A stretch of DNA of 64,000 nt, taken from the NCBI GenBank assembly GCA_004558025.1, contig SFEG01000008.1:13909-77908 (forward strand). The letters run 5' to 3'. The notes beneath the pieces were generated by a model. It ran no database searches and was not told where the DNA came from. It was given only the letters and a program-made list of their open reading frames with translations. A program made the translations under genes and the position numbers. Shown here one piece after another: positions 20,253 through 64,000 of this stretch; the first letter of the stretch is position 1, and each line of letters opens with the position of its first letter. This stretch comes from Clostridiales bacterium (lineage in GTDB: Bacteria > Bacillota > Clostridia > Oscillospirales > Oscillospiraceae).

Positions 20253-22724
20253 TTAAGGGGTACGTATCGTGGTGCTCAGAATGACGGTTATGAGCAGCCA
20301 TGCGAGCAGATAGCTCAGCGCCGCCACGACGCCGGGCAGCGCCTTAAGGCTTATGATGAACATGACGATCATGCCGATAACGGCGCTCATTACGCTGAGC
20401 ATGACGCTGAGGCGTATGCGGCCGAAAAGCGCCTTGCCGTGGTCGGCCAGACTCACGAGCGGTGCGAGCCCCTCGCGCGATAAAAGCGCTGAGGGCTTAC
20501 TGCCCTCAGAGGGCTCCGCGCCGGATATGGCATAGCGCTCCGAGTACGGCGGGAAGTCGAAGCCGTCGGTCGGCATGTCGAACTTTACAGACAGCATCGA
20601 GGGCGTGATGTTGAAGTCGCGCACGGCGAATATCGCGTGCCTGTCCGAGCCGACGAGCTCTGCCAAGGCGCTCCTGACTGCGTCAGAGGCCGTGTATTCC
20701 ATCTCGAATACGCCGCAGATAACGCCCGCCACGGCAACGTATACGCCGTTATTGAGAACATATTTGTCCGGCAGCACTACGCCCATAAGACGCATGAACG
20801 CGGCATTTCCGCAGTAAACCGACTCGCCGTCGACCATTGCGGTGAGGCCTCCGCTTTCGTGCACCGAGAAAGCCTCGACGGTCATAAGGCTTCCGCCTGC
20901 CTTGCGCATGAGCTCGTTGAACGGATGTACCATTGCGCTGCCCGAGGCAGAGATGATGCTTCCGGCAAAGGATATTATCCTTTCCGGCTGCATACCGGCG
21001 AAAACGCGCGTTCTGCTTATCTTGACGCAGCCTTTCGGGAACAGATCGGAATCTGTTATTATAAGATGCTTTGCCTTGCCGATATCGTAAAGCCCCGACC
21101 AGCCGGCTATCGTCGAGCCTCTGCGGATGAGGCTTTTTATCGAGATGAAAAACGGCAGGGGGAAGGTTATGAGCATCGCTATGGGCGCGGCGCACACGAA
21201 TATGCCTGAGAGGATGTGCGCAAAGGAAGAGAAGCTTTTGCTTATAACGGCGGCGATAATGCTCAAAACCAGAGCTGCCGCGGTGAGATACGGCGCGAGC
21301 ACACCGAAAACGGACTCGTCCGGGCCGTCCTCCTCGGTGCGGCGGACCATACCGTCTACCGGCCTGCTGCCCTTGACAAGGGTAATATCCCCGCCCGAAA
21401 GCTCGGACTCGGCAGTCAGAACGTACGGGCGCTTTGCCGCGGCGGCGGTGTTGAATATGACTCTGTTGCTTCGTGCGTTCATGATGCAGCCGAGCAGTGT
21501 GAACGCTATCGTCAGCGAAGGAATAACGCAGAACGGCACGACCTTTTCGCCGACGTTTGCCGCGGACAGAAATGCGTCTATCATGCACAGCAGACACGAT
21601 ACGACGATAAGCGCGCTTGCGTGCAGCTTGAGCTTGACTATGCTCATTATGCCGGTCGTTATGATATCAAGGCCGCAGATCATGACGGCGATCATCATGA
21701 TAAGGCACACAGCGCTCTTAACGCCCGCGTCAAACAGCGCACCGGGCACGGGCAGACCGTAGGATATGTACATCATGACAGCGCACAGAACGAAGGCTAT
21801 ACGAGCTCTCAGCCTCAGACCGGCGATGTGCTTGTCGTAAAATTTCGCGGCCTTGTCCGGAGGCATCTCCTCGCCGAGATCCTCGGCTTCATAGCTCGTT
21901 TCGCCGAGCGTGACCTGGCTCTGCTTTATTTTCATCGCGATAAACGCCAGTGCGGTGATGACCGGCACGGCGACGGATTCGCGGAATGACTTCGGCTCTC
22001 TGCGCGCCTTTTCCTTTTTCGGTATCTCGGGTTCTATAACGGTGTAGTCGGCGTCGGCAGCGTATTTATCCTCGGGATTTTCCTCTATGCCGGAGCCCTC
22101 GTAAAGATCGGGCTCGGGCTCGTTTTCGGGGGGCTCGTCAAAACGTACCCTCGTCTGCTCGGACTCGGACTTCGGCTCCGACGGCTCGGAGGGAGATGAG
22201 AGATGCTCTTCGCGCAGCTTTGTCGGCTCGGGCTCTTCGACCGGAGCGGGCTCGGGCTCGATCACACGCCCGGCCGGAGCATCTTCGTGCCGGAACTCGG
22301 CGATTATGCGGTCAACCTCGTCGAGCACATCGTCGGCTACCGCTGTTTCGGCAGGGAAGGTGGAAGTTTCAGCTTCCTTCGCGGGAGCGGCGGGACGTAT
22401 GCTGTCCTCGGAATAGAACTCGCGGCGGACTGCCTGCGCATCGAGCTTTGAGGTGCTTTCGGAAATGCTGTCTTCCGACTCAAATTCCGCGGCTATTTCC
22501 TCGGGGTCGAAGTCATATTCATCCTGCGCGGGTTCGGCCTTGACGCCGTCGTTTATAACGGCGGAGAACACCTCGTCGAGTGCCTTCGCTGCGTCCTTTA
22601 TCGGCTCTGCCGGCTCAAAGACGGGCTTTTCGGATACGGGCTCCTCGTCGAGTGCGCCGAACTCGCTCAATATACTGTCAAGATCAAAGCTGAGATCGAC
22701 AGAGTTTTTATAATTTGGATTCAT
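20253..22724 (-). CDS. Membrane protein with a degenerate P1B-type ATPase core and a long acidic N-terminal extension
   Basis: Colinear with CopA-type ATPases, but the catalytic motifs are changed: CPC to CAAP, DKTGT to TDSDLF, TGDN to VRDFN, and no GDGxNDxP. The first ~250 aa are Asp/Glu/Pro-rich. Confidence 0.65.
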   Translation of the reverse strand: MNPNYKNSVDLSFDLDSILSEFGALDEEPVSEKPVFEPAEPIKDAAKALDEVFSAVINDGVKAEPAQDEYDFDPEEIAAEFESEDSISESTSKLDAQAVRREFYSEDSIRPAAPAKEAETSTFPAETAVADDVLDEVDRIIAEFRHEDAPAGRVIEPEPAPVEEPEPTKLREEHLSSPSEPSEPKSESEQTRVRFDEPPENEPEPDLYEGSGIEENPEDKYAADADYTVIEPEIPKKEKARREPKSFRESVAVPVITALAFIAMKIKQSQVTLGETSYEAEDLGEEMPPDKAAKFYDKHIAGLRLRARIAFVLCAVMMYISYGLPVPGALFDAGVKSAVCLIMMIAVMICGLDIITTGIMSIVKLKLHASALIVVSCLLCMIDAFLSAANVGEKVVPFCVIPSLTIAFTLLGCIMNARSNRVIFNTAAAAKRPYVLTAESELSGGDITLVKGSRPVDGMVRRTEEDGPDESVFGVLAPYLTAAALVLSIIAAVISKSFSSFAHILSGIFVCAAPIAMLITFPLPFFISIKSLIRRGSTIAGWSGLYDIGKAKHLIITDSDLFPKGCVKISRTRVFAGMQPERIISFAGSIISASGSAMVHPFNELMRKAGGSLMTVEAFSVHESGGLTAMVDGESVYCGNAAFMRLMGVVLPDKYVLNNGVYVAVAGVICGVFEMEYTASDAVRSALAELVGSDRHAIFAVRDFNITPSMLSVKFDMPTDGFDFPPYSERYAISGAEPSEGSKPSALLSREGLAPLVSLADHGKALFGRIRLSVMLSVMSAVIGMIVMFIISLKALPGVVAALSYLLAWLLITVILSTTIRTP

Positions 22725-53759: not shown

Positions 53760-53781
53760 TCCAATTGCTCATTTGAGAAAT

Positions 53782-53845
53782 GGCGGCATAGCTCAGTTGG
53801 CTAGAGCATGCGGTTCATACCCGCAGTGTCCCCGGTTCGAATCCA
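53782..53845 (+). pseudogene. tRNA-Met(CAU)-like 5' fragment lacking the 3' acceptor strand
   Basis: Acceptor GGCGGCA, D-arm GCTCAGTTGGCTAGAGC, anticodon arm TGCGG-TTCATAC-CCGCA and T-loop TTCGAAT are present. No TGCCGCC-A-CCA follows, and tRNA-Glu starts at once. Confidence 0.6.
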
Positions 53846-53920
53846 GGCCCGTTGGTCAAGCGGTTAAGACACCGCCCTTTCACGGCGGTAACATGGGTTC
53901 GATTCCCGTACGGGTCACCA
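53846..53920 (+). tRNA. tRNA-Glu (anticodon UUC)
   Basis: Full cloverleaf by hand folding: acceptor GGCCCGT/ACGGGTC, anticodon loop CTTTCAC, T-loop TTCGATT, encoded CCA. Confidence 0.9.
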
Positions 53921-53955
53921 AAAAGCCTTCACGCTTCTGCGTGAAGGCTTTTTTC
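53921..53955. terminator. Bidirectional terminator (tRNA locus / srtB)
   Basis: aaaagccttcacgc-ttct-gcgtgaaggctttt. Confidence 0.85.
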
Positions 53956-54691
53956 ATATCTTTTTTGCGACTACTATGAAGCGCCCGTCCTCGGCGTGAT
54001 ATGCACAGGTGGAGAGGGTGAGTATCTTATCGCCGGGCGAGAGTTCGGCATCGGTGTCGTAGAGCCTGTTTTCTTCAATGAATTTACCGTAGTCATTAAA
54101 CGAGTTCTCATCACCGCTGCCGGTGTATTCATAGTATTTGAAGCCGTCGCTGCCCTCGGGCACGAGCTCGGTCTTTATCGCAGCGACGATCTCATAGGTC
54201 TGCTTTTCGTATATCGTGTCAAAGCTTATGAGCTTGTGCTGCTTATAAAAATCCTCGCTGACATAGTACATGAGCGAGCCGAACATTGAATTATCCTTCA
54301 TGTTGTGCCCGTAGATTATCAGGTTGTCGGACGAGAGTATGTCGCAGTATTCGTCGACGAACAGGCAGCCGCGATAGGCGTAATTGCCGTAAAAATCCGT
54401 GTGCAGATACTTGTCGATCTCGTCGGGCGCGTACATAACGACGTTGTCTATGCCCGTTCCGTCTATCTTCAGCCAGCCGATGGTGTCGGGGTTTTCGGCA
54501 TACAGCGCTTCATATTCCGGCAGAATATCGGGCAGGGAAGAGCTTGCCTGTGCATCCTTGAGGCCTTTGAGCTTATCGTCGGTGCGCTTGCTGCGCAGAT
54601 CGTCGACCGTGTAGAATATCAGGACGCCGACAGAGACGATGAGCGCTATTAAAGCTATCAGGCGTGTGATTTTTCGCAAATTTATGTTCAT
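53954..54691 (-). CDS. srtB: Class B sortase
   Basis: N-terminal TM anchor, IYGHNM motif and catalytic TLSTC motif. Length and pattern are typical of SrtB. Confidence 0.9.
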   Translation of the reverse strand: MNINLRKITRLIALIALIVSVGVLIFYTVDDLRSKRTDDKLKGLKDAQASSSLPDILPEYEALYAENPDTIGWLKIDGTGIDNVVMYAPDEIDKYLHTDFYGNYAYRGCLFVDEYCDILSSDNLIIYGHNMKDNSMFGSLMYYVSEDFYKQHKLISFDTIYEKQTYEIVAAIKTELVPEGSDGFKYYEYTGSGDENSFNDYGKFIEENRLYDTDAELSPGDKILTLSTCAYHAEDGRFIVVAKKI

Positions 54692-54786: not shown

Positions 54787-55902
54787 TCAGTTTGGCTTTT
54801 TCTTGCGATAAGTACCTGCAAGCACTGCCAGGCTGATGACCGCTATCGCAGACATCATGACAACGCTTCTTGTATCTCCGGTCTCTGACGGAGTCTTGGA
54901 CTCTGTCGGCTTATCCGGAGTATTCGGATTGTCCGGGTTGTTCGGCTTATCCGGAGTGTTCGGATTGTCGGGATTACTCGGCTTATCCGGAGTATTCGGA
55001 TCGTCGGGATTGCTCGGCTTATCCGGAGTATTCGGATCGTCGGGATTGCTCGGCTTATCCGGAGTATTCGGATCGTCGGGATTGCTCGGCTTATCCGGTG
55101 TGTTCGGATCATCCGGCTTGCCGGGCTTATCGCCGCCGGGGTTATCGCCGCCGGGGTTGTTGCCGCCGGGGTTGTCGCCGCCGGGGTTGTTGCCGCCGGG
55201 ATTGTCGCCGCCGGGGTTGTTGCCGCCGGGGTTGTCGCCGCCGGGGTTGTCGCCGCCGGGATTGCTGCCGCCGGGATTGTCGCCGCCGGGATTGCTGCCG
55301 CTGCCGATACTGTCAATGTTCAGGTGAACGACATGACCGCCGACATTGCTCATAAACATGTATGTAGCGTTGCCGGGTACATAGTCTGCGGCCACTCCGG
55401 TGAAACCACTGCTCGGATTCCAGATGATGGCCTCCTCGACGGTGTTGCCGTAAATGAGATCCCAGCCCTTGATGTTCGCTCCGTTAACTTCTATCTTGAG
55501 CGTGCATGCACCGGGAAGCCTTATGAGTGAACCGTGAGTTACAAGCTGAATGTCATCCTTCAAGGTCAAGTAGTCCTTGGTAAAGGTGGAACGCCAGAAA
55601 ACGGTGTTCGTAACAGGCAGATAAGCTGTAACGGTCACGGTAGCGTCAGCCGGAAGATTCTCGTAGCCATGCAGGCAAAGCAGGAAGTTGATGAAGTTTG
55701 CGTCGGGATACTCTGTATTGCGAAGCCCGATCCCGCTGAAGTAAGACGAAAGAGTCGAGACAGTGTCGGTATCCGCAGCAACATCCACATCAAGTCCATC
55801 GGCATTTGCGTCAGCACTTAGAGCGAAAACAGCAATCAGGAAGACAGCAAGCACAAAAAGCGCCGTAAGCACAGGCCTGCTGAGCCTTTTCGCTTTTACC
55901 AT
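54787..55902 (-). CDS. Repetitive cell-surface protein with a C-terminal sorting signal (PSETG)
   Basis: Signal peptide, a ~190-aa globular region, (G-G-D/N/S-N-P)n and (KPSNPDDPNTPD)n repeats, then PSETG, a hydrophobic helix and RKKK. Confidence 0.85.
   Translation of the reverse strand: MVKAKRLSRPVLTALFVLAVFLIAVFALSADANADGLDVDVAADTDTVSTLSSYFSGIGLRNTEYPDANFINFLLCLHGYENLPADATVTVTAYLPVTNTVFWRSTFTKDYLTLKDDIQLVTHGSLIRLPGACTLKIEVNGANIKGWDLIYGNTVEEAIIWNPSSGFTGVAADYVPGNATYMFMSNVGGHVVHLNIDSIGSGSNPGGDNPGGSNPGGDNPGGDNPGGNNPGGDNPGGNNPGGDNPGGNNPGGDNPGGDKPGKPDDPNTPDKPSNPDDPNTPDKPSNPDDPNTPDKPSNPDDPNTPDKPSNPDNPNTPDKPNNPDNPNTPDKPTESKTPSETGDTRSVVMMSAIAVISLAVLAGTYRKKKPN
54907..55122. repeat. Six tandem 36-nt coding repeats
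   Basis: The unit cggcttatccggagtattcggatcgtcgggattgct encodes KPSNPDDPNTPD on the minus strand. Confidence 0.9.
55123..55302. repeat. Twelve tandem 15-nt coding repeats
   Basis: The unit ggggttgtcgccgcc encodes GGDNP-type pentapeptides on the minus strand. Confidence 0.9.
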
Positions 55903-57196: not shown

Positions 57197-57226
57197 TTGA
57201 CATTTGCGCTGAAGTTAAAGTATAAT
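57197..57226 (+). promoter_or_regulatory. Sigma-A type promoter of dehydratase-like pair 1
   Basis: TTGACA, 18 nt, TATAAT. Confidence 0.5.
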
Positions 57227-57304
57227 CAAACAAAGAAGTATGGGGGATTCTCATACGAAAATAACTGGTAGGCAAAAATTTAAAATAAGCGGAAGGGGTT
57301 GCAA

Positions 57305-58492
57305 ATGAAAGACCTAAAACATCTGATCTATTTTGAAAACCTGCTGCAGGACGCTCAGAACGAGCTCGTCACCAAGGCAGTGGAGGATGGGCAGATAGCA
57401 CTCGGTTATAACTGCTATTACATACCCGAAGTCCTTCTCAATCTTGAAGGCTGCTTCTCTTCAAGACTTCGTGCACCCAATTGCACATCCAGCGACATCG
57501 CAAACTACTACATGACAAACCGTACCTGCCCCTATGCACGCTCCATTCTTGAGCGCGCCATTGAAGGCGGATACAACTATCTGAGCGCTCTGTTCGGCGC
57601 GGAGAGCTGCGCTACCATGGAGCGTATGGAGGAGCATTTCTTCCTCATCAATCCCGTAAAGCACGACGGCTTCTTCGTCACCCAGATCGATCCCCCCATG
57701 AAGGGCGATCAGACAAACCTCGATTACTACAAGGCACAGCTCAAGCTCAAGGTCGTTGACGCAATGCGCGACCGCCTCGGCATTGACGTCTCCGAAGAGG
57801 CGATGCGCAAGGCGATCGAGCAGGAAAATGAGCTCAGCCGCATAATCACCGAGATCGGTAATTTCCGCAAGCTCGATAATCCTCCCATCACCGGCTATGA
57901 GTTCCACGTGATCCAGCTCGTGAGCCAGGTCTGCCCGCATAAGCTGATCCTGCCTTACCTCAAGGAGACCCTCGAAGAGATCAAGACCCGCGAGCCCGAG
58001 GAGAAGTTCCCGTTCCGCGCGCGCGTTGCGCTCGTCGGCTCTGAGATCGACGACCCCGAGTTCACAAAGCTAATCGAGATGTGTGGCGCAATGGTAGTTG
58101 CCGACCGCTACTGCTTCGGCTCCTTCCCCAGCAGAGAACAGATCGAGATACGCGACGGCGAGACCGCATTCGACGCTATCTGCCGCCACTACCTGTACTG
58201 GAACCAGTGCGCGCGCTTCATGGACGGCTTCAAGATCGACCAGCGTCATGCTATAGCGACTCAGCTCGTTGAGGACTTCAAGGCTGACGGCATCATCTAC
58301 GAAAACATGAAATTCTGCGAGTTCTGGAGCTATGAGAAGGTTCTCGCAAACCACATCTTCACGAACGAAAAGCACATTCCTTGCTGCACCATCGAGAAGG
58401 AGTACTCCCTCGGCGCAGTCGGACAGCTTCGTACACGTTTCCAGGCATTCATCGAATCCCTGGAGATCAAGTCCATTCAGGGAGGTAAGTAA
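57305..58492 (+). CDS. 2-hydroxyacyl-CoA dehydratase family protein (HgdB/BcrC-like), beta1
   Basis: GYNCYYIPEVLL, SCATMERMEEHF, DRYCFGS and MKFCEFWSYE Cys-containing blocks are typical of the HGD-D family. ATG at 57305. Confidence 0.75.
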   Translation: MKDLKHLIYFENLLQDAQNELVTKAVEDGQIALGYNCYYIPEVLLNLEGCFSSRLRAPNCTSSDIANYYMTNRTCPYARSILERAIEGGYNYLSALFGAESCATMERMEEHFFLINPVKHDGFFVTQIDPPMKGDQTNLDYYKAQLKLKVVDAMRDRLGIDVSEEAMRKAIEQENELSRIITEIGNFRKLDNPPITGYEFHVIQLVSQVCPHKLILPYLKETLEEIKTREPEEKFPFRARVALVGSEIDDPEFTKLIEMCGAMVVADRYCFGSFPSREQIEIRDGETAFDAICRHYLYWNQCARFMDGFKIDQRHAIATQLVEDFKADGIIYENMKFCEFWSYEKVLANHIFTNEKHIPCCTIEKEYSLGAVGQLRTRFQAFIESLEIKSIQGGK

Positions 58493-60096
58493 TGATGTTC
58501 GATAAAGTTATAGCAGCAGTAGATAAAAAGCTTGAACGCTTTGACCCCATATGGCAGGCCGAAAACGGCGTCGGCGGTCAGAGATCCCGTTACTACGACA
58601 AGACCGGCGTTGCAAAATGGCGTGAATGGCGCGGCGTTAAGGACACCATGGTCGACTACGGCGCATGGCTGAAGAACCTTGCCTCAATGGCGATGATGGT
58701 AGCCTCCGCTCCGATCCCCTGTCTCAAGGGCTTTTGGGAGTACCGCTGGATGGGCTCCTACCTCGGCACCTTCATGTTCATCGACCGCCTGTTCGAGGGC
58801 TTCCGCGGCTATGAGCTCGTTACTGCACATAAGTGCATGCACGCTATCGTCCGCAGCCTGACCAAGAAGATCGCGTTCTGCCTGAGCAATGACCGTCGTC
58901 TCGGCGGCGGCAAGGATACCGACCGCATCGTTCCCATGGATGAGGTTCTGCCTCCGCTGTTCATGATGGGCTTCAAGGAGCTCGTTCCGTTCCCTCTGCA
59001 GACGCTGCCTGAGTTCATCATCTGCGATGTTGACCAGCACATTGAGCCCTACTACATCGACGTTGCCGAGTCCTTCGGTCTTCCCGCCGACGTCTGCTCC
59101 CGCTGCGCGGCAGAGACCGGCGTTGCTCTCGACGACGCATTCCCCCTCATCGGTAAGGCAATGATCTCGACCAATATGCCATGCAATGCATCCGAGGCCA
59201 CCTCCATGTTCCAGCGCCGCCGCATAGGCATGCCGGACTTCCCCGTAACACTCGCCATGATTCACAACGAGCCGGGCGCGCATCCGTATTCCACCCAGAT
59301 GCTCAAGGACGCTATCGCCTTCATCGAGAAGGAGTACGGCGTAAAGTACGACTGGGATAACCTCTTTAAGTATGCAAAGCTCATGAACGAGCAGAACACC
59401 ATTGAGCTTGAAAAGTGGGATTACTTCAAGACTCCGTACTCCGCGCTGTGCGGCATAGCGGAGACTCTGTACCGCCTGTATGCTTGGGCCTCCGTAAACG
59501 GCACCGATCCTTACTTCAACAAGGTTGACCGTCAGGTCATAAAGATCATGCGCAAGGCGTATGAGGAGAAGAGAGAGCCCTTCGGCGGCCGTACCCGCCA
59601 CCGTGCCTTCCTGTGGGGCCCCTCCGCTGTTTACTACACCGATTTCCCGACCTGGATCCAGAACTGCTGGGGCATCAATATCGTCCTGAACATGGACTCC
59701 ACCATGGGTCACAACATGATAAACACCGAGGATCCCGAAGAGGCAATCAAGGATCTGGCTCTGTTCTCCGAAAAGGCTACCATGCGTCACCACGCCGTCG
59801 GCGGCTGGGACAACGTCAACGCTATCTGGGAGTGGGCAAAGAATTTCAACTGCGACATGGTCCTGTTTAACGACAACATCGCCTGCAAGGGTATGCTCGG
59901 CGTCCACGCTCTCATGGAAGAGCAGGCCAGAGAGCTCGGCTTCCACTTCATCTTCATCGAGCATGACCTTGAAGACAGCCGCACCGTTTCCCGCCAGGAT
60001 ATGCGTAACTGCGTAAACGGCTACATGTCCGTCGTCCTGGGCGAGAAGCCTCTCGACCCGACCATCGTTGAGTTTGACGACAGCGAAGCATATTAA
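58492..60096 (+). CDS. 2-hydroxyacyl-CoA dehydratase family protein, large subunit-like, alpha1
   Basis: TAATG overlap with beta1. Blocks ESFGLPADVCSRC, NMPCNAS and NIACKG. Paralogue of the ORF at 62389. Confidence 0.65.
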   Translation: MMFDKVIAAVDKKLERFDPIWQAENGVGGQRSRYYDKTGVAKWREWRGVKDTMVDYGAWLKNLASMAMMVASAPIPCLKGFWEYRWMGSYLGTFMFIDRLFEGFRGYELVTAHKCMHAIVRSLTKKIAFCLSNDRRLGGGKDTDRIVPMDEVLPPLFMMGFKELVPFPLQTLPEFIICDVDQHIEPYYIDVAESFGLPADVCSRCAAETGVALDDAFPLIGKAMISTNMPCNASEATSMFQRRRIGMPDFPVTLAMIHNEPGAHPYSTQMLKDAIAFIEKEYGVKYDWDNLFKYAKLMNEQNTIELEKWDYFKTPYSALCGIAETLYRLYAWASVNGTDPYFNKVDRQVIKIMRKAYEEKREPFGGRTRHRAFLWGPSAVYYTDFPTWIQNCWGINIVLNMDSTMGHNMINTEDPEEAIKDLALFSEKATMRHHAVGGWDNVNAIWEWAKNFNCDMVLFNDNIACKGMLGVHALMEEQARELGFHFIFIEHDLEDSRTVSRQDMRNCVNGYMSVVLGEKPLDPTIVEFDDSEAY

Positions 60097-60114
60097 TAGG
60101 AGGATATAATAACG

Positions 60115-60288
60115 ATGAAAAACGTTGCAAAGATCGGCGGCAAGCTCGCCATGTTCGCATTCCTCGCTTTTGTCGGCACCTTTACCCTGTACATCACCAA
60201 CGGCGAAAACAAGCTCATCTACTATGTCATTCGCCCGCTGCTGAACAAGCATTACGATTCCCAGGTTCGTGACCGCAGGATCGTCTGA
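60115..60288 (+). CDS. Small single-TM protein (57 aa)
   Basis: Not in the ORF track. TAGGAGGA lies 8 nt upstream. MKNVAKIGGKLAMFAFLAFVGTFTLYITNGENKLIYYVIRPLLNKHYDSQVRDRRIV. A terminator follows. Confidence 0.55.
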   Translation: MKNVAKIGGKLAMFAFLAFVGTFTLYITNGENKLIYYVIRPLLNKHYDSQVRDRRIV

Positions 60289-60306
60289 TTGCGTATTTTA
60301 ATCACT

Positions 60307-60338
60307 GAGAGACCCCGAACTTCGGGGTCTCTTTTTTC
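60307..60338 (+). terminator. Rho-independent terminator after pair 1
   Basis: gagaccccga-act-tcggggtctc followed by tttttt. Confidence 0.85.
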
Positions 60339-60437
60339 GCTTGCGAGCAAATTGACAATTTTGTTGAATGTGTATAGCAGAACACGTTTTTTATGCAAAA
60401 AAACCTGAAATTTTCATATAAAAGGACGTATATTCTC

Positions 60438-60466
60438 TTGCAAAACCAAGGCACTTGTGTTAAACT
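60438..60466 (+). promoter_or_regulatory. Sigma-A type promoter of the CooC-like / pair 2 unit
   Basis: TTGCAA, 17 nt, TAAACT. Confidence 0.45.
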
Positions 60467-60519
60467 GTTATCAAAATGCGTAAGGTATGTATAAGCGCAA
60501 TTGAAGGGGGGACGTATTA

Positions 60520-61284
60520 TTGGAAAACAAAGCGAAGATCATAGCGGTCGCCGGTAAGGGCGGCGTCGGCAAGACGTCGATCTCGGCATCGATCGTAAGG
60601 CTTTTGGTGGAGAATTTCCCGGATAAAAAGATCCTTGCGATAGATGCAGACCCCGCTGTCGGCCTGTCTGTCGCTCTCGGCGTTGATGTTAAGCTCACAC
60701 TTGACGATATCCGCATGAGCATCGTTGACAGCGTCGAAAACGGCGAAACAAGAGAAGCGCTTGAGCTTTTGAGCGAGGCGCGATTCAAAATCTTTGACGC
60801 ACTGGTCGAAATGCCCGGCTTTGCATTTCTCGGCATCGGCAGGCCCGAAAGCTCCGGCTGCTACTGCAAGGTCAATTCCTACCTGAAGGAAGTCATCGGC
60901 ATTCTGGCAAACAGCTTCGACTATGTCGTCATTGACGGTGAGGCCGGCATTGAGCAGATACAGCGCCGCGTTATGGATAAGGTAACGCATCTGCTGCTCG
61001 TCACCGACCAGAGCAAAAAGGGCTGCCAGGTCGTATCAACGATCAAGAACGTCGCAGACGAGCTGATCGTTTACGATAAGATCGGCGCCATCGTAAACAG
61101 AATGACAAATCCCGAGCTCGCGGAGCTCATAACAGTGCCCGGTGTTGACATCGTGGCGCGCATCCCTGCGGACAATGCATTTGCCGCAAACGATATTAAG
61201 GGTCAGAGTGTGCTCAATCTGCCCGAAGATTCTCTTATGCTCAACGGAGTAAAGGAAGCACTCCAAAAAATAGAAATTCTTTGA
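60520..61284 (+). CDS. CooC/AcsF-type MinD-fold metallocentre-maturation ATPase homologue
   Basis: Deviant Walker A AGKGGVGKTS, DADPA, the CXC metal motif SSGCYCKVNSYL, and DGEAGIEQ. TTG start with AAGGGGGGA upstream. Confidence 0.8.
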   Translation: MENKAKIIAVAGKGGVGKTSISASIVRLLVENFPDKKILAIDADPAVGLSVALGVDVKLTLDDIRMSIVDSVENGETREALELLSEARFKIFDALVEMPGFAFLGIGRPESSGCYCKVNSYLKEVIGILANSFDYVVIDGEAGIEQIQRRVMDKVTHLLLVTDQSKKGCQVVSTIKNVADELIVYDKIGAIVNRMTNPELAELITVPGVDIVARIPADNAFAANDIKGQSVLNLPEDSLMLNGVKEALQKIEIL

Positions 61285-61300
61285 AGAAGAGGTGTAACAT

Positions 61301-62389
61301 TTGAAAGATCTTAAGCATCTGATCTACAACATAGGCAACTGTTTCTCCGTGCGTCTGCGCGCACCGAAGACAGGTTCGATCGACATCGCGACCTACTACA
61401 TGTCCAACTACACCTGCGAGTACGCACGCGCACTCGTAGAACGTGCAATTGAGGGCGGCTATCAGTTCCTCGACGCAATGATCGGTGTAGACGCATGCTC
61501 CATGATGAACCGTGCAATGGAGCATTTCGAGGTCCTGAAGGTCAACGATAAGGAAAAGTTCTTTGTAACTCACATGGACATTCCTTTCAAGGTGACCGAC
61601 TATACCCTCGAAGCTTACGAAACCCAGATGCAGATCCACGTTTTGGATAACCTGAAGGAGAAGTTCGGTATCGACACCTCCGAGAAGGCTATCCGCAAGG
61701 CTGTTAAGGAGCACAACGAAGTCTGCAAGATCCTCACCGAGATCGGCGATATGCGCAAGGCTGAAAACCCCGTTATCACCGGCTATGAGTATCACGTCCT
61801 GAACCTCGTTTCCTTCACCTGCCCGAAGAGACTCATTCTCCCCTACCTGAAGGAGACCCTGAAAGAGCTCAAGGCTCGCAAGCCCGATCCCAAGCCCTGG
61901 TTCCGCGCAAGAGTTGCTATCGTTGGTTCCGAGATCGACGATCCCAACCTCACCAAGCTTATCGAAGGCTGCGGTGCATTTGTCTGCTCCGACCGTCACT
62001 GCTTCGGCTCGACTCCCGGCCGTGAGGTCATCGAGCTCAATGACGACGAGCCCGCACTCAGACAGATCTGCCGTCACGTAATGGAGCACTCCGAGTGCGC
62101 ACGTTACATATCCGATGAGAAGGTCATGCAGCGTCGTCACACCGCAGACCGCCTTGCAAAAGAGTACCACGCAGAAGGCATCATCTACGAGCAGATGAAG
62201 TACTGCGACTACTGGGGCTTCGAGCGTGCACTCGTCAGCCATGTTATGGCTGAGGAATACGGCTGGCCCGTACTGTCCATCGATAGACTGTACAACAACG
62301 GTAACTCTGGTCAGCTCCGTACCCGCTGCCAGGCCTTTGTTGAGTCTCTGGAGATCAAGCGTATTCATAAAGAGGAGGGCATAAAGTAA
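61301..62389 (+). CDS. 2-hydroxyacyl-CoA dehydratase family protein, beta2 (paralogue of beta1 with an N-terminal deletion)
   Basis: Shares MKDLKHLIY, RLRAP, ERAIEGGY, ITGYEYHV, ILPYLKETL, RARVAIVGSEIDDP, DRHCFGS and GQLRTRCQAFVESLEIK with beta1. TTG start. Confidence 0.75.
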   Translation: MKDLKHLIYNIGNCFSVRLRAPKTGSIDIATYYMSNYTCEYARALVERAIEGGYQFLDAMIGVDACSMMNRAMEHFEVLKVNDKEKFFVTHMDIPFKVTDYTLEAYETQMQIHVLDNLKEKFGIDTSEKAIRKAVKEHNEVCKILTEIGDMRKAENPVITGYEYHVLNLVSFTCPKRLILPYLKETLKELKARKPDPKPWFRARVAIVGSEIDDPNLTKLIEGCGAFVCSDRHCFGSTPGREVIELNDDEPALRQICRHVMEHSECARYISDEKVMQRRHTADRLAKEYHAEGIIYEQMKYCDYWGFERALVSHVMAEEYGWPVLSIDRLYNNGNSGQLRTRCQAFVESLEIKRIHKEEGIK

Positions 62390-64000
62390 TGGCTAAGACT
62401 CCTAAATATCCTAATCCTAAGTTTTTCAAGGCGAAAGACAATATCGATTGGAAGAAGCAGTGGGAAAACCTGAAGGTTTGCGGCGGCATCTTCTATGATA
62501 TGCTCAAAGAGACCGATTGGGAAGCATTCAAAAACGGCTGGAAGAACACCCTGAAGATGGATGCAGAACGCATCAAGGAAGAGTACCATGCATTCATGGC
62601 ACTCGACCAGCAGGGTAAGCTTGATGCTATCCTCTACGGTGAAAAGAGACTTGGCAGACTGTATGCCAAGGGCGCAATGGCAACCGTTCGTCGTGAGTGG
62701 CGCGGCATCAAGGACACCGCATATGACTTCTACGAGTGGGCTCGTATGTGGGGCATGCTCCTTATGACCTTCTCCAAGGATCTCATTCCCGCACTCAACA
62801 GTGCTCTGCACTACCGCTGGATGATCTCCTACTTCTGCTGCCACGGCTTTATGGATAAGAACATCATGGGTCAGCGCGGCCGCGCTCTCCGCATGAGCCA
62901 CCTGCTTATCTACGATATATTCCGCTATGTTGCAGAGAACCTCGTTCTTCTGTCCAAGGCTGACCGCAAGAACGGCAACAGCAACGAGCTCAACAAGATG
63001 CTCGTAACCTTTGACGAGATGACCATGGGTCAGATCATGGCAGGCTTCCCCGATCTGTGCGGTATTCCGTATCAGCTGCTGCCCGTCTTCCTCGTCTCTG
63101 AGATCGACCAGCTCACCTGCGTACCTTACATCGACGCAGTCGAGTCCTTCGGTCTGCCCGCAGACTGCTGCCCGGTTCCTTCCTCCGAATGCGGCGCACT
63201 GGTTATCGACGCACTGCCCGATATGGGCTCCTGCTTCATCTCCAGCTCCATGCCCTGCGACGGCTCCACCATGGCATCCTCTTACTTTGCACGCCGCTTC
63301 CCGAACACTCCCGTGTTCCACCTCTGCTTCCCCGTACGTTACGAGGACGAATCCGTCCTTCAGTCGGCAGCCGAGGATATCAAGGCCTGCATAAAGTTTA
63401 TCGAGGATAAGACCGGTGCGAAGTGGAATTGGGATGCTTACTTCACGGCTATGAAGCGCTTCAACAAGGAGACTTCCTATGAGCTCGAGAAGTGGGAAAT
63501 TAACAAGACCAAGTATCCGCAGCTTATCGGCCCCTGCTACGAGCTGTTCCGCAAATGGAACTACGAGATGGACGGCGGTATCGATCCCCGCGTCATATCC
63601 ACCTGCGAAAAGGTCAGCAAGCTGATCCGCGAGGCATATGAGGATCGCGACGAAGCTTGGGTCGGCAAGATGAAGTACCGTGCGATCGTATGGTCCTGCC
63701 CGGCTCACTACTACGCAAACTTCTCCAACTGGGCTGCCAACTGCTGGGGCATCGATGTCCTGGTAGAGATGGAGTCTCTCAACTTCACCAAGCCCCTCGA
63801 GACCGAGGACAAGGAAGAGGCATTGCGCGACCTGGCTCGCCTGTACGAGCGTATGGTTATGCGCCGTCACACCAACGGCGGTTACCACAACGTCGTAACC
63901 GAGCTGTGGCGTCAGTGCGAAGCATGGGATGCAAAGCTCATCATCATGTATCAGAACGTTGCATGTAAGAACATGGCAACTGTTCAGGGCCTGCTTGACG
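62389..64000 (+). CDS. 2-hydroxyacyl-CoA dehydratase family protein, alpha2 (3'-truncated by the window edge)
   Basis: The open frame from ATG 62389 (TAATG overlap with beta2) runs to the window end and is not in the ORF track. REWRGIKDT, ESFGLPADCCP, SMPCDGS and NVACKN parallel alpha1. Confidence 0.7.
   Translation, partial: MAKTPKYPNPKFFKAKDNIDWKKQWENLKVCGGIFYDMLKETDWEAFKNGWKNTLKMDAERIKEEYHAFMALDQQGKLDAILYGEKRLGRLYAKGAMATVRREWRGIKDTAYDFYEWARMWGMLLMTFSKDLIPALNSALHYRWMISYFCCHGFMDKNIMGQRGRALRMSHLLIYDIFRYVAENLVLLSKADRKNGNSNELNKMLVTFDEMTMGQIMAGFPDLCGIPYQLLPVFLVSEIDQLTCVPYIDAVESFGLPADCCPVPSSECGALVIDALPDMGSCFISSSMPCDGSTMASSYFARRFPNTPVFHLCFPVRYEDESVLQSAAEDIKACIKFIEDKTGAKWNWDAYFTAMKRFNKETSYELEKWEINKTKYPQLIGPCYELFRKWNYEMDGGIDPRVISTCEKVSKLIREAYEDRDEAWVGKMKYRAIVWSCPAHYYANFSNWAANCWGIDVLVEMESLNFTKPLETEDKEEALRDLARLYERMVMRRHTNGGYHNVVTELWRQCEAWDAKLIIMYQNVACKNMATVQGLLD

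Follow-up and report, generated by a model that had tools for sequence, protein, structure and literature searches.

Benzoyl-CoA reductases (BCR), 2-hydroxyacyl-CoA dehydratases (HAD) and double-cubane cluster proteins (DCCP) are ATP-driven radical enzymes that catalyse reductions among the most difficult known in biology. To our knowledge, these enzymes need only general iron-sulfur assembly and an activator of the ASKHA fold. Here we analyse a 64,000-nucleotide stretch of the Clostridiales bacterium contig SFEG01000008.1 (assembly GCA_004558025.1, positions 13,909 to 77,908; hereafter the window), which encodes towards its 3' end two paralogous pairs of HGD-D family subunits, beta1/alpha1 and beta2/alpha2, and between them an ATPase whose sequence places it in the CooC family. 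The enzyme core of this system and its activase are of a known kind. The dedicated CooC-family ATPase, joined in most loci by a protein resembling a domain of acetyl-CoA synthase (ACS) and by membrane peptides, constitutes a set of conserved additions that is undescribed in the searchable literature.

The dehydratase HadBC with its activator HadI (3o3m) resembles the proteins studied here in its alpha/beta heterodimer of HGD-D subunits and in its homodimeric HgdC-type activator. HadC, however, binds a single [4Fe-4S] cluster, whereas beta carries the full six-cysteine set of the BzdN type, and the had operon includes the CoA-transferase HadA, for which this locus has no counterpart. DCCP and its reductase DCCP-R (6eno, 7yyl) share with our proteins the six-cysteine [8Fe-9S] site and the ASKHA reductase, and no physiological substrate has been assigned to DCCP. 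In contrast to the distinct alpha and beta subunits found here, DCCP is a homodimer of one subunit type. The class I BCRs of the Bzd and Mbd types (BzdNOPQ and MbdONPQ; 8s02, 9g87 and 9gai) have, like this locus, a heterodimeric core with a six-cysteine N/beta and a three-cysteine O/alpha subunit, and an ASKHA ATPase. Their activase is a P/Q heterodimer, whereas a single activase gene is present here, so that a homodimeric activase is expected. Moreover, genes of a CoA-ester pathway are missing near this locus, and neither the CooC-like ATPase nor the membrane peptides have a counterpart in BzdNO, in the MbdONPQ structures or in the paper on BzdNO (PMC11971306).

Results

A CooC-like ATPase gene lies between two HGD-D pairs

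All window genes of the locus read from the forward strand. Pair 1 consists of beta1 (57305-58492; 395 residues from its ATG, with a TTG six bases 5' that is also in frame and open) and alpha1 (58492-60096; 534 residues). Pair 2 is formed by beta2 (61301-62389; 362 residues here and 398 in other strains) and alpha2 (62389-64000), which is cut by the window end after 537 of its 595 codons. The gene of the MinD-fold ATPase lies between the pairs (60520-61284; 254 residues, TTG start). The original prediction had placed both pairs at these coordinates, with the ATPase between them, in agreement with the open reading frame (ORF) listing of the window, and had described the TAATG stop/start overlaps, which are present at both the beta1/alpha1 and the beta2/alpha2 junction. 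A search of public assemblies for the identical ATPase led to near-identical contigs from the human gut (L001-L008) that run past the window end and in which alpha2 has 595 residues, as seen in full in L001. The enzyme is widespread in gut metagenomes, and the assembly collection lists the identical ATPase protein in 1115 indexed blocks.

The ATPase contains GKGGVGKT at residues 12-19 and a GCYC motif (C114-Y-C116), on which the earlier reading of a CooC-type protein had been based. Its best match in the PDB is indeed CooC1 (3kje, 5.8e-16), aligned over the full length with CXC on CXC at 27% identity. With CooC1 and AcsF it shares the MinD fold, the deviant Walker A motif and the position of CXC in the alignment; it differs from them in its partners, which are HGD-D proteins, activases and proteins similar to the N-terminal domain of CdhC instead of cooS or acsB. 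A representatives search with the ATPase yielded 2060 clusters at E<1e-3, 158 of them at E<1e-30. The motifs GKGGxGK[ST] and C[YF]C are kept in nearly all of 89 full-length representatives of the subfamily, in which the CXC cysteines are the only conserved ones. The Pfam model Fer4_NifH reaches 22.8 bits against a cut-off of 25 and covers residues 7-82 only, and the NCBIfam models nifH, bchL and cfbC score ~18-20 against cut-offs above 340. The AlphaFold2 model (predicted template modelling score, pTM, 0.87) gives its highest TM-score, 0.74, with CooC1 (3kje). Since the Foldseek E-values do not separate CooC from MinD, FleN and NifH and only the TM-score favours CooC1, the structural evidence for the assignment is weak. 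On the strength of the alignments and motifs, we assign the ATPase to the CooC family.

The ATPase gene adjoins HGD-D genes in distant bacteria

A homologue search with the ATPase alone returned only relatives of at least 84% identity. Distant relatives were therefore collected through a representatives search, a profile built from 14 distant members and a search of a protein collection with that profile. In six of six context look-ups of such distant ATPases (Desulfobacterales-labelled or similar; L089-L095), HGD-D pairs and activases adjoin the ATPase, which is 48-51% identical to that of the window (tblastn). Two types of pair occur in these loci. The type I pair is BzdNOPQ-like and accompanied by two activase genes; its beta and alpha share 25% and 19% identity, respectively, with their window counterparts. 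The type II pair comprises a 370-residue beta, an alpha of ~507 residues and a single activase, with identities to the window proteins of 35-37%, 25% and 54-56%, respectively.

A metagenome scan with an ATPase alignment headed by a consensus provided 80 more loci, of which the 33 with at least 5 kb on both sides were counted. An HGD-D gene is found in 28 of these, an activase gene in 27 and a CdhC-like gene in 31, and each of the 33 has at least one of the three. Most loci follow the type II architecture (ATPase, beta, alpha, activase, CdhC-like; 21/33), seven the type I architecture (495-residue protein, B, A, Act, Act, CdhC-like, ATPase), and the remaining five hold the ATPase and the CdhC-like gene only, with no HGD-D gene within 10 kb. 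Eight of the 80 ATPase loci have no visible partner, and each of these ends less than 1.5 kb from the ATPase on one or both sides. Related strains enter into these synteny counts, which lack phylogenetic independence; the counted loci span gut Clostridia, Desulfobacterales-labelled relatives and three architectures. Judged by gene order, the linkage of the ATPase with this clade of HGD-D enzymes is conserved across distant bacteria. Conservation of a CooC-like gene beside HGD-D pairs, which the original prediction had proposed to look for in relatives, is hence strongly borne out from gut Clostridia to Desulfobacterales-labelled loci. Its further statement that such a pairing had not been described holds for the searchable literature: our search found no paper on a CooC-like/HGD-D linkage, much subscription literature lying outside its reach.

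The CdhC-like protein of these loci has ~230-250 residues (for example L129 14807-15541, L165 10814-11557 and L089 7268-8008). Its similarity to CdhC/AcsB is limited to the N-terminal part, namely the first ~150-195 of ~460 positions (PF03598, 28-48 bits), and ends in a conserved DCxxCxLKxxCDEVEGMxELHF motif. In type I clusters, the end of its gene overlaps the ATPase start by 8 nucleotides. There is no CdhC-like gene in the window, and the closest relatives (L001-L003, L014 and L134) have none in the ~5-6 kb that follow the activase. The gene is present in L129 and L157, whose ATPase is 85% identical, and also in L070, L067 and L081. As near relatives have the gene, the lineage studied here has lost or relocated it.

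Type I clusters (L089 396-1883, L092 2320-3897, L099, L101, L102 and others), whose close relatives are Desulfobacterales-labelled, begin with a conserved protein of 495-525 residues for which neither Pfam nor NCBIfam gives a match. In addition, they contain the BzdNOPQ-like set, a 395-residue ferredoxin, the CdhC-like and CooC-like genes and sometimes an aldehyde ferredoxin oxidoreductase (AFOR), acyl-CoA dehydrogenases or an AMP-ligase. By this content, type I clusters may represent a reductase system for aryl- or acyl-CoA that is as yet uncharacterised. At L091 8001-9257 (P0380), a 418-residue call joins a CooC-like ATPase to an HGD-D fragment and represents either a fusion or a frameshift or miscall.

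Predicted cluster sites of the beta and alpha subunits

Beta1 and beta2 are 54% identical (2e-165), while alpha1 and alpha2 align along nearly their whole length at 36% identity (7e-118). These values confirm the paralogy originally proposed for the two betas and the two alphas. The proposed membership of alpha and beta in the HGD-D family is likewise confirmed, as all four proteins exceed the Pfam cut-off of 28.4 bits (PF06050): beta1 scores 294 bits (2.6e-87), beta2 287 bits (3.6e-85), alpha1 111.5 bits (8.4e-32, residues 183-508) and alpha2 97.8 bits (1.3e-27). None of the NCBIfam equivalogs comes near its cut-off; double_cubane, which ranks first for both betas, reaches 141 and 118 against 350, HadC 77 and 61 against 700, bzdN 75 against 454 and bcrB 18 against 487. 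Because of these low scores, the proteins, though BzdNO-like in architecture, fall into no characterised family.

The PDB matches of beta1 are, in order, BzdN (8s02_B, 3.4e-20), DCCP (~1e-16) and, last, HadC (8.6e-12). In the HMMER alignment, Cys37, Cys75, Cys102, Cys270, Cys302 and Cys338 of beta1 pair six out of six with Cys36, Cys73, Cys100, Cys263, Cys293 and Cys327 of BzdN, the ligands of its [8Fe-9S] cluster (PMC11971306). By this alignment, beta is BzdN-like, and its six cysteines should bind an [8Fe-9S] double cubane.

In the window, beta2 carries an in-frame deletion of 108 nucleotides (36 codons), located by the L001 translation and DNA alignment to a junction at ~61322-61328. The deletion removes FESLLENADNELVKQAQAEGDICLGYTCYHVPEALL, including the cysteine of GYTCYHVPE that is equivalent to BzdN Cys36 and would be the first ligand of the double cubane. 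It is absent from L001-L008 and from every other species examined, and beta2 of other strains has all six cysteines. The junction shows a TCTAC/TCTC microhomology, and an exact-sequence look-up of the shortened beta2 found no other record. The deletion may reflect a defective unit 2 in this strain or an assembly error at this position.

For alpha1 alone, phmmer returned no match in the PDB; a profile of six alpha sequences matched DCCP (9.4e-15), BzdO (2.7e-11) and MbdO (1.7e-10). In the profile alignment, C202 of alpha1 aligns with C95 of BzdO and C465 with C380, and C231 lies one residue off C128; C202, C231 and C465 are invariant in 38 alpha sequences. Their BzdO counterparts, Cys95, Cys128 and Cys380, are the ligands of a [4Fe-4S]-OH2 cluster (PMC11971306). 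A histidine is not found in alpha at the position aligned with the catalytic His131 of BzdO, where the alignment is approximate. The top structural matches of the AlphaFold2 model of alpha1 (pTM 0.81) are the catalytic subunits HadB (3o3m_A), BzdO (8s02_A) and MbdO (9g87_A), ahead of beta/N-type subunits. While the cluster loops are modelled at low confidence, residues 1-132 form a confidently predicted helical domain N-terminal to the Pfam HGD-D part (183-508). Compared with BzdO, alpha thereby has an extra helical N-terminal domain of ~130-190 residues. These comparisons describe alpha as BzdO/HadB-like; its three cysteines should bind a [4Fe-4S] cluster on the substrate side, leaving one iron open.

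An activase gene follows alpha2

The original prediction had no HgdC-type activase in view and reasoned from this absence. None lies inside the part of the cluster that the window covers. On the contigs that run further, however, the next gene after alpha2, ~140 nucleotides 3' of it, encodes a 264-residue activase (~64317-65111 in window-equivalent numbering, outside the window), complete in L001-L004 and visible as cut gene starts at the ends of L005-L008. It matches PF01869 (BcrAD_BadFG) at 7.7e-57 and TIGR00241, 'acyl-CoA dehydratase activase', with 217 bits against a cut-off of 125. It contains Cys128 and Cys167, which we take to be the positions of the [4Fe-4S] cluster ligands in HgdC. 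Since the gene starts just past alpha2, the apparent lack of an activase is an artefact of the window edge. The idea that the CooC-like protein replaces the activase was discarded, as the activase gene is present. Moreover, a dedicated activase removes the main argument for the CooC-like protein as electron donor.

The gene tables of the flanking contigs list no CoA-transferase and no CoA-ligase within 10 kb on either side, so that the absence of a CoA-transferase, also part of the original prediction, extends beyond the window. An activase together with a CoA-transferase past position 64000 had been taken there as the sign of an ordinary operon. The activase is found, whereas the CoA-transferase is not, and the ATPase is syntenic.

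A 52-residue membrane peptide with a single helix is encoded 3' of the activase (L001 14902-15060). It is followed on the opposite strand by genes for an acetyltransferase, RidA, a pyridoxal phosphate (PLP) enzyme, a DUF3298 protein and an Fe-hydrogenase.

Two predicted transcription units

A sigma-70-type promoter (57197-57226, +) with TTGACA and TATAAT separated by 18 nucleotides scores 12/12 in a consensus scan and lies ~78 nucleotides 5' of the beta1 ATG. It is followed by beta1, alpha1 and, after a gap of 18 nucleotides, an ORF of 57 codons (60115-60288, +). This third gene encodes a peptide with one predicted transmembrane helix (Kyte-Doolittle hydropathy 1.69 over 19 residues) and is annotated by gene callers in L001-L008. 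A strong intrinsic terminator (60307-60333, +) with a 12-bp stem containing 7 GC pairs, a 3-nucleotide loop and a T run ends the unit. Downstream of the terminator, a candidate second promoter (60405-60434) agrees with the consensus at only 9/12 positions. Of the promoter-like element proposed for each unit, the first is therefore perfect, whereas the second is poor. The ATPase gene is the first gene of unit 2 and is separated from beta2 by 16 nucleotides. An Rfam scan of the whole window gave no riboswitch or leader RNA 5' of either unit. Neither the 57-residue nor the 52-residue peptide is assigned to a family; both have a W/Y-x-N-L-D-x-K-like motif that also occurs in a small ORF of L118.

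Conservation of pair 1 was followed with a genome-collection scan using an alpha alignment, which returned 80 loci with only alpha1 orthologues of at least 73% identity. Nearly all are labelled Oscillospiraceae or unclassified Clostridiales/Clostridia (Candidatus Limivicinus, Candidatus Scatomorpha and others). Seven proteins were placed on these loci by tblastn, and counts were taken over the 32 with at least 6 kb on both sides. Beta1, alpha1 and the 57-residue peptide occur together in 32/32, the peptide gene in each case directly 3' of alpha1. An ATPase gene lies nearby in only 2/32 and an activase gene in only 3/32. The ATPase-beta2-alpha2-activase unit, in contrast, is joined to the 3' side of pair 1 in the closest relatives alone. 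L070 has this unit in reverse orientation to pair 1 but with the same gene order inside it, and its ATPase is 66% identical.

As the terminator separates alpha1 and the 57-codon ORF from the ATPase gene, the locus is arranged in two predicted units: unit 1 with the promoter, beta1, alpha1, the 57-residue peptide and the terminator, and unit 2 with the cooC-like gene, beta2, alpha2 and the activase. The original arrangement of both pairs about the ATPase, if read as a single unit, was consequently abandoned, given this terminator and the independence of pair 1, which lacks a nearby ATPase in 30/32 related species. Because pair 1 stands alone in most of these, the ATPase belongs to unit 2 and not to both pairs.

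Some relatives have a third paralogous pair, whose 398-residue beta and 548-residue alpha are 55% and 37% identical to the window proteins. In L065 (232-3071) and L070 (1431-5312) it has its own activase and no ATPase. A pair similar to this third pair is found directly 3' of the small peptide in L031 (12068 onwards).

Other features of the window

A surface-protein-like ORF at 54787-55902 (-) contains GGDNPGG and PDDPNTPDKPSN tandem repeats and a C-terminal membrane anchor, and a sortase gene adjoins it (53954-54691). The ORF has 371 codons here and encodes 290-378 residues among the otherwise near-identical L001-L008, from which we conclude that the number of repeats differs between strains. 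ARAGORN reports a tRNA-Met (53781-53855) and a tRNA-Glu (53846-53920) overlapping by 10 nucleotides, of which Rfam gives the second only (53846-53917). An ORF of 823 codons (20256-22724, -) has no Pfam match at E<=1e-5.

Discussion

We propose, with moderate confidence, that the locus encodes two paralogous, heterodimeric radical iron-sulfur enzymes of the BCR/dehydratase/double-cubane superfamily, with the activase as electron donor and the CooC-like ATPase as a dedicated accessory factor. The activase, a putative homodimer of the HgdC/BzdQ type that probably serves both pairs, would inject a low-potential electron in an ATP-dependent manner into the double cubane of beta, from where it would pass to the [4Fe-4S] cluster of alpha and on to the bound substrate. 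The same electron route has been described for the published BzdNO and DCCP systems. For the ATPase, the original prediction offered maturation of a metallocluster or ATP-driven electron donation. Maturation is plausible: an accessory function as metallochaperone or maturation factor, modelled on CooC and AcsF, is the most likely one, and we do not regard the ATPase as an electron donor. Upon ATP-driven dimerisation, two CXC motifs would form a four-cysteine site for a metal ion or cluster fragment, and hydrolysis would hand this cargo over to a client. The candidate client is the beta2/alpha2 enzyme and, in most lineages, also the CdhC-N-domain-like protein, while the 57-residue and 52-residue membrane peptides would be further conserved components. 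The lack of CoA-activating genes nearby, together with these conserved membrane peptides, hints at a substrate outside the classical CoA-ester pathway, and the substrate may be no CoA thioester.

Several observations weigh against this proposal. The ATPase is found near pair 1 in only 2/32 alpha-anchored loci, and the third pair of some relatives has no ATPase nearby either. The tightest-linked partner of the ATPase is the CdhC-like gene (31/33 loci), which is its sole partner in five loci; since our strain has no such gene in the ~6 kb 3' of the activase, the client of the ATPase is uncertain here. Furthermore, genes of carbon monoxide dehydrogenase (CODH)/ACS may exist elsewhere in the genome; within the gene tables of the loci and the ten large window ORFs that were scanned, neither cooS nor a full acsB was found. 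Finally, E. coli carrying a plasmid for BzdNO alone produced BzdNO with its [8Fe-9S] cluster (PMC11971306). A double cubane alone consequently needs no dedicated ATPase, and the ATPase may serve another site or partner.

In an alternative reading, the CdhC-like protein is the sole client of the ATPase, much as ACS is served by AcsF and CooC, and the HGD-D subunits are not acted on directly. In the strain studied here, the client gene would then lie elsewhere or be lost, and the ATPase would work in trans or be vestigial. The near-constant presence of the CdhC-like gene in the well-flanked loci, the 8-nucleotide overlap in type I clusters and the five loci with the ATPase/CdhC-like pair alone all speak for it, as does the homology of the protein to the first domain of CdhC/AcsB. 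This homology is confined to the N-terminal part, however, and the C-terminal domain of CdhC/AcsB, which holds the canonical nickel-binding A-cluster, is unmatched. In addition, the ATPase is intact and highly conserved in L001-L003, L014 and L134, although the ~5-6 kb 3' of the activase there contain no CdhC-like gene, and the short gap to beta2 brings the ATPase translationally close to that subunit. On balance, we regard an exclusive CdhC-like client as unlikely.

Far less probable is an ordinary 2-hydroxyacyl-CoA dehydratase operon of amino-acid fermentation, in which the CooC-like gene would be a chance neighbour serving a CODH elsewhere. The activase fits such an operon, but a CoA-transferase or CoA-ligase is missing within 10 kb, beta has the full six-cysteine set of BzdN and DCCP with HadC last among its PDB matches, and the NCBIfam equivalogs, HadC and double_cubane included, score far below their cut-offs. 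Neither does a chance neighbour agree with the synteny of the ATPase in 33/33 loci from gut Clostridia to Desulfobacterales-labelled relatives, nor with the lack of a CODH/ACS gene in the loci and ORFs scanned.

A NifH-like role of the CooC-like ATPase as ATP-driven electron donor to the alpha/beta clusters, the second option of the original prediction, has the slightest chance of all, for although the protein has the MinD/NifH fold, finds Fe-protein and BchL structures among its Foldseek matches and could in principle bind a bridging cluster between the two CXC motifs of a dimer, a dedicated ASKHA activase conserved in the module is the next gene after alpha2, the Fer4_NifH match is sub-threshold and limited to the N-terminus, and the conserved cysteines are those of the CooC-type CXC only and not the Cys97/Cys132 pattern of NifH. 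NifH acting on NifDK/NifEN, which donates electrons and also helps to mature complex iron-sulfur clusters, still offers a likeness for the accessory factor that we favour, namely a MinD-family ATPase paired with an eight-iron-cluster protein and a precedent for help in cluster fusion or maturation. It differs in having the cluster cysteines that are absent from our ATPase and in targets of a different, distantly related fold, and the present system has a separate ASKHA donor.

The conservation of a CooC-type ATPase with one enzyme clade suggests an unrecognised cofactor or maturation step. We put forward, as a tentative and somewhat doubtful generalisation, that there is a large, uncharacterised clade of BzdNO/DCCP-like radical iron-sulfur enzymes for which a dedicated CooC-type ATPase is required, in most cases along with a small protein that stems from an ACS domain. 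If this is true, members of the HGD-D family would carry a nickel or other heterometal site, or would need ATP-dependent assembly of a complex cluster, in a maturation pathway that parallels the CODH/ACS and nitrogenase ones. The known range of the CooC family would thereby widen beyond CODH/ACS, in a clade that is found in abundant Oscillospiraceae of the human gut and in anaerobes with Desulfobacterales-labelled proteins.

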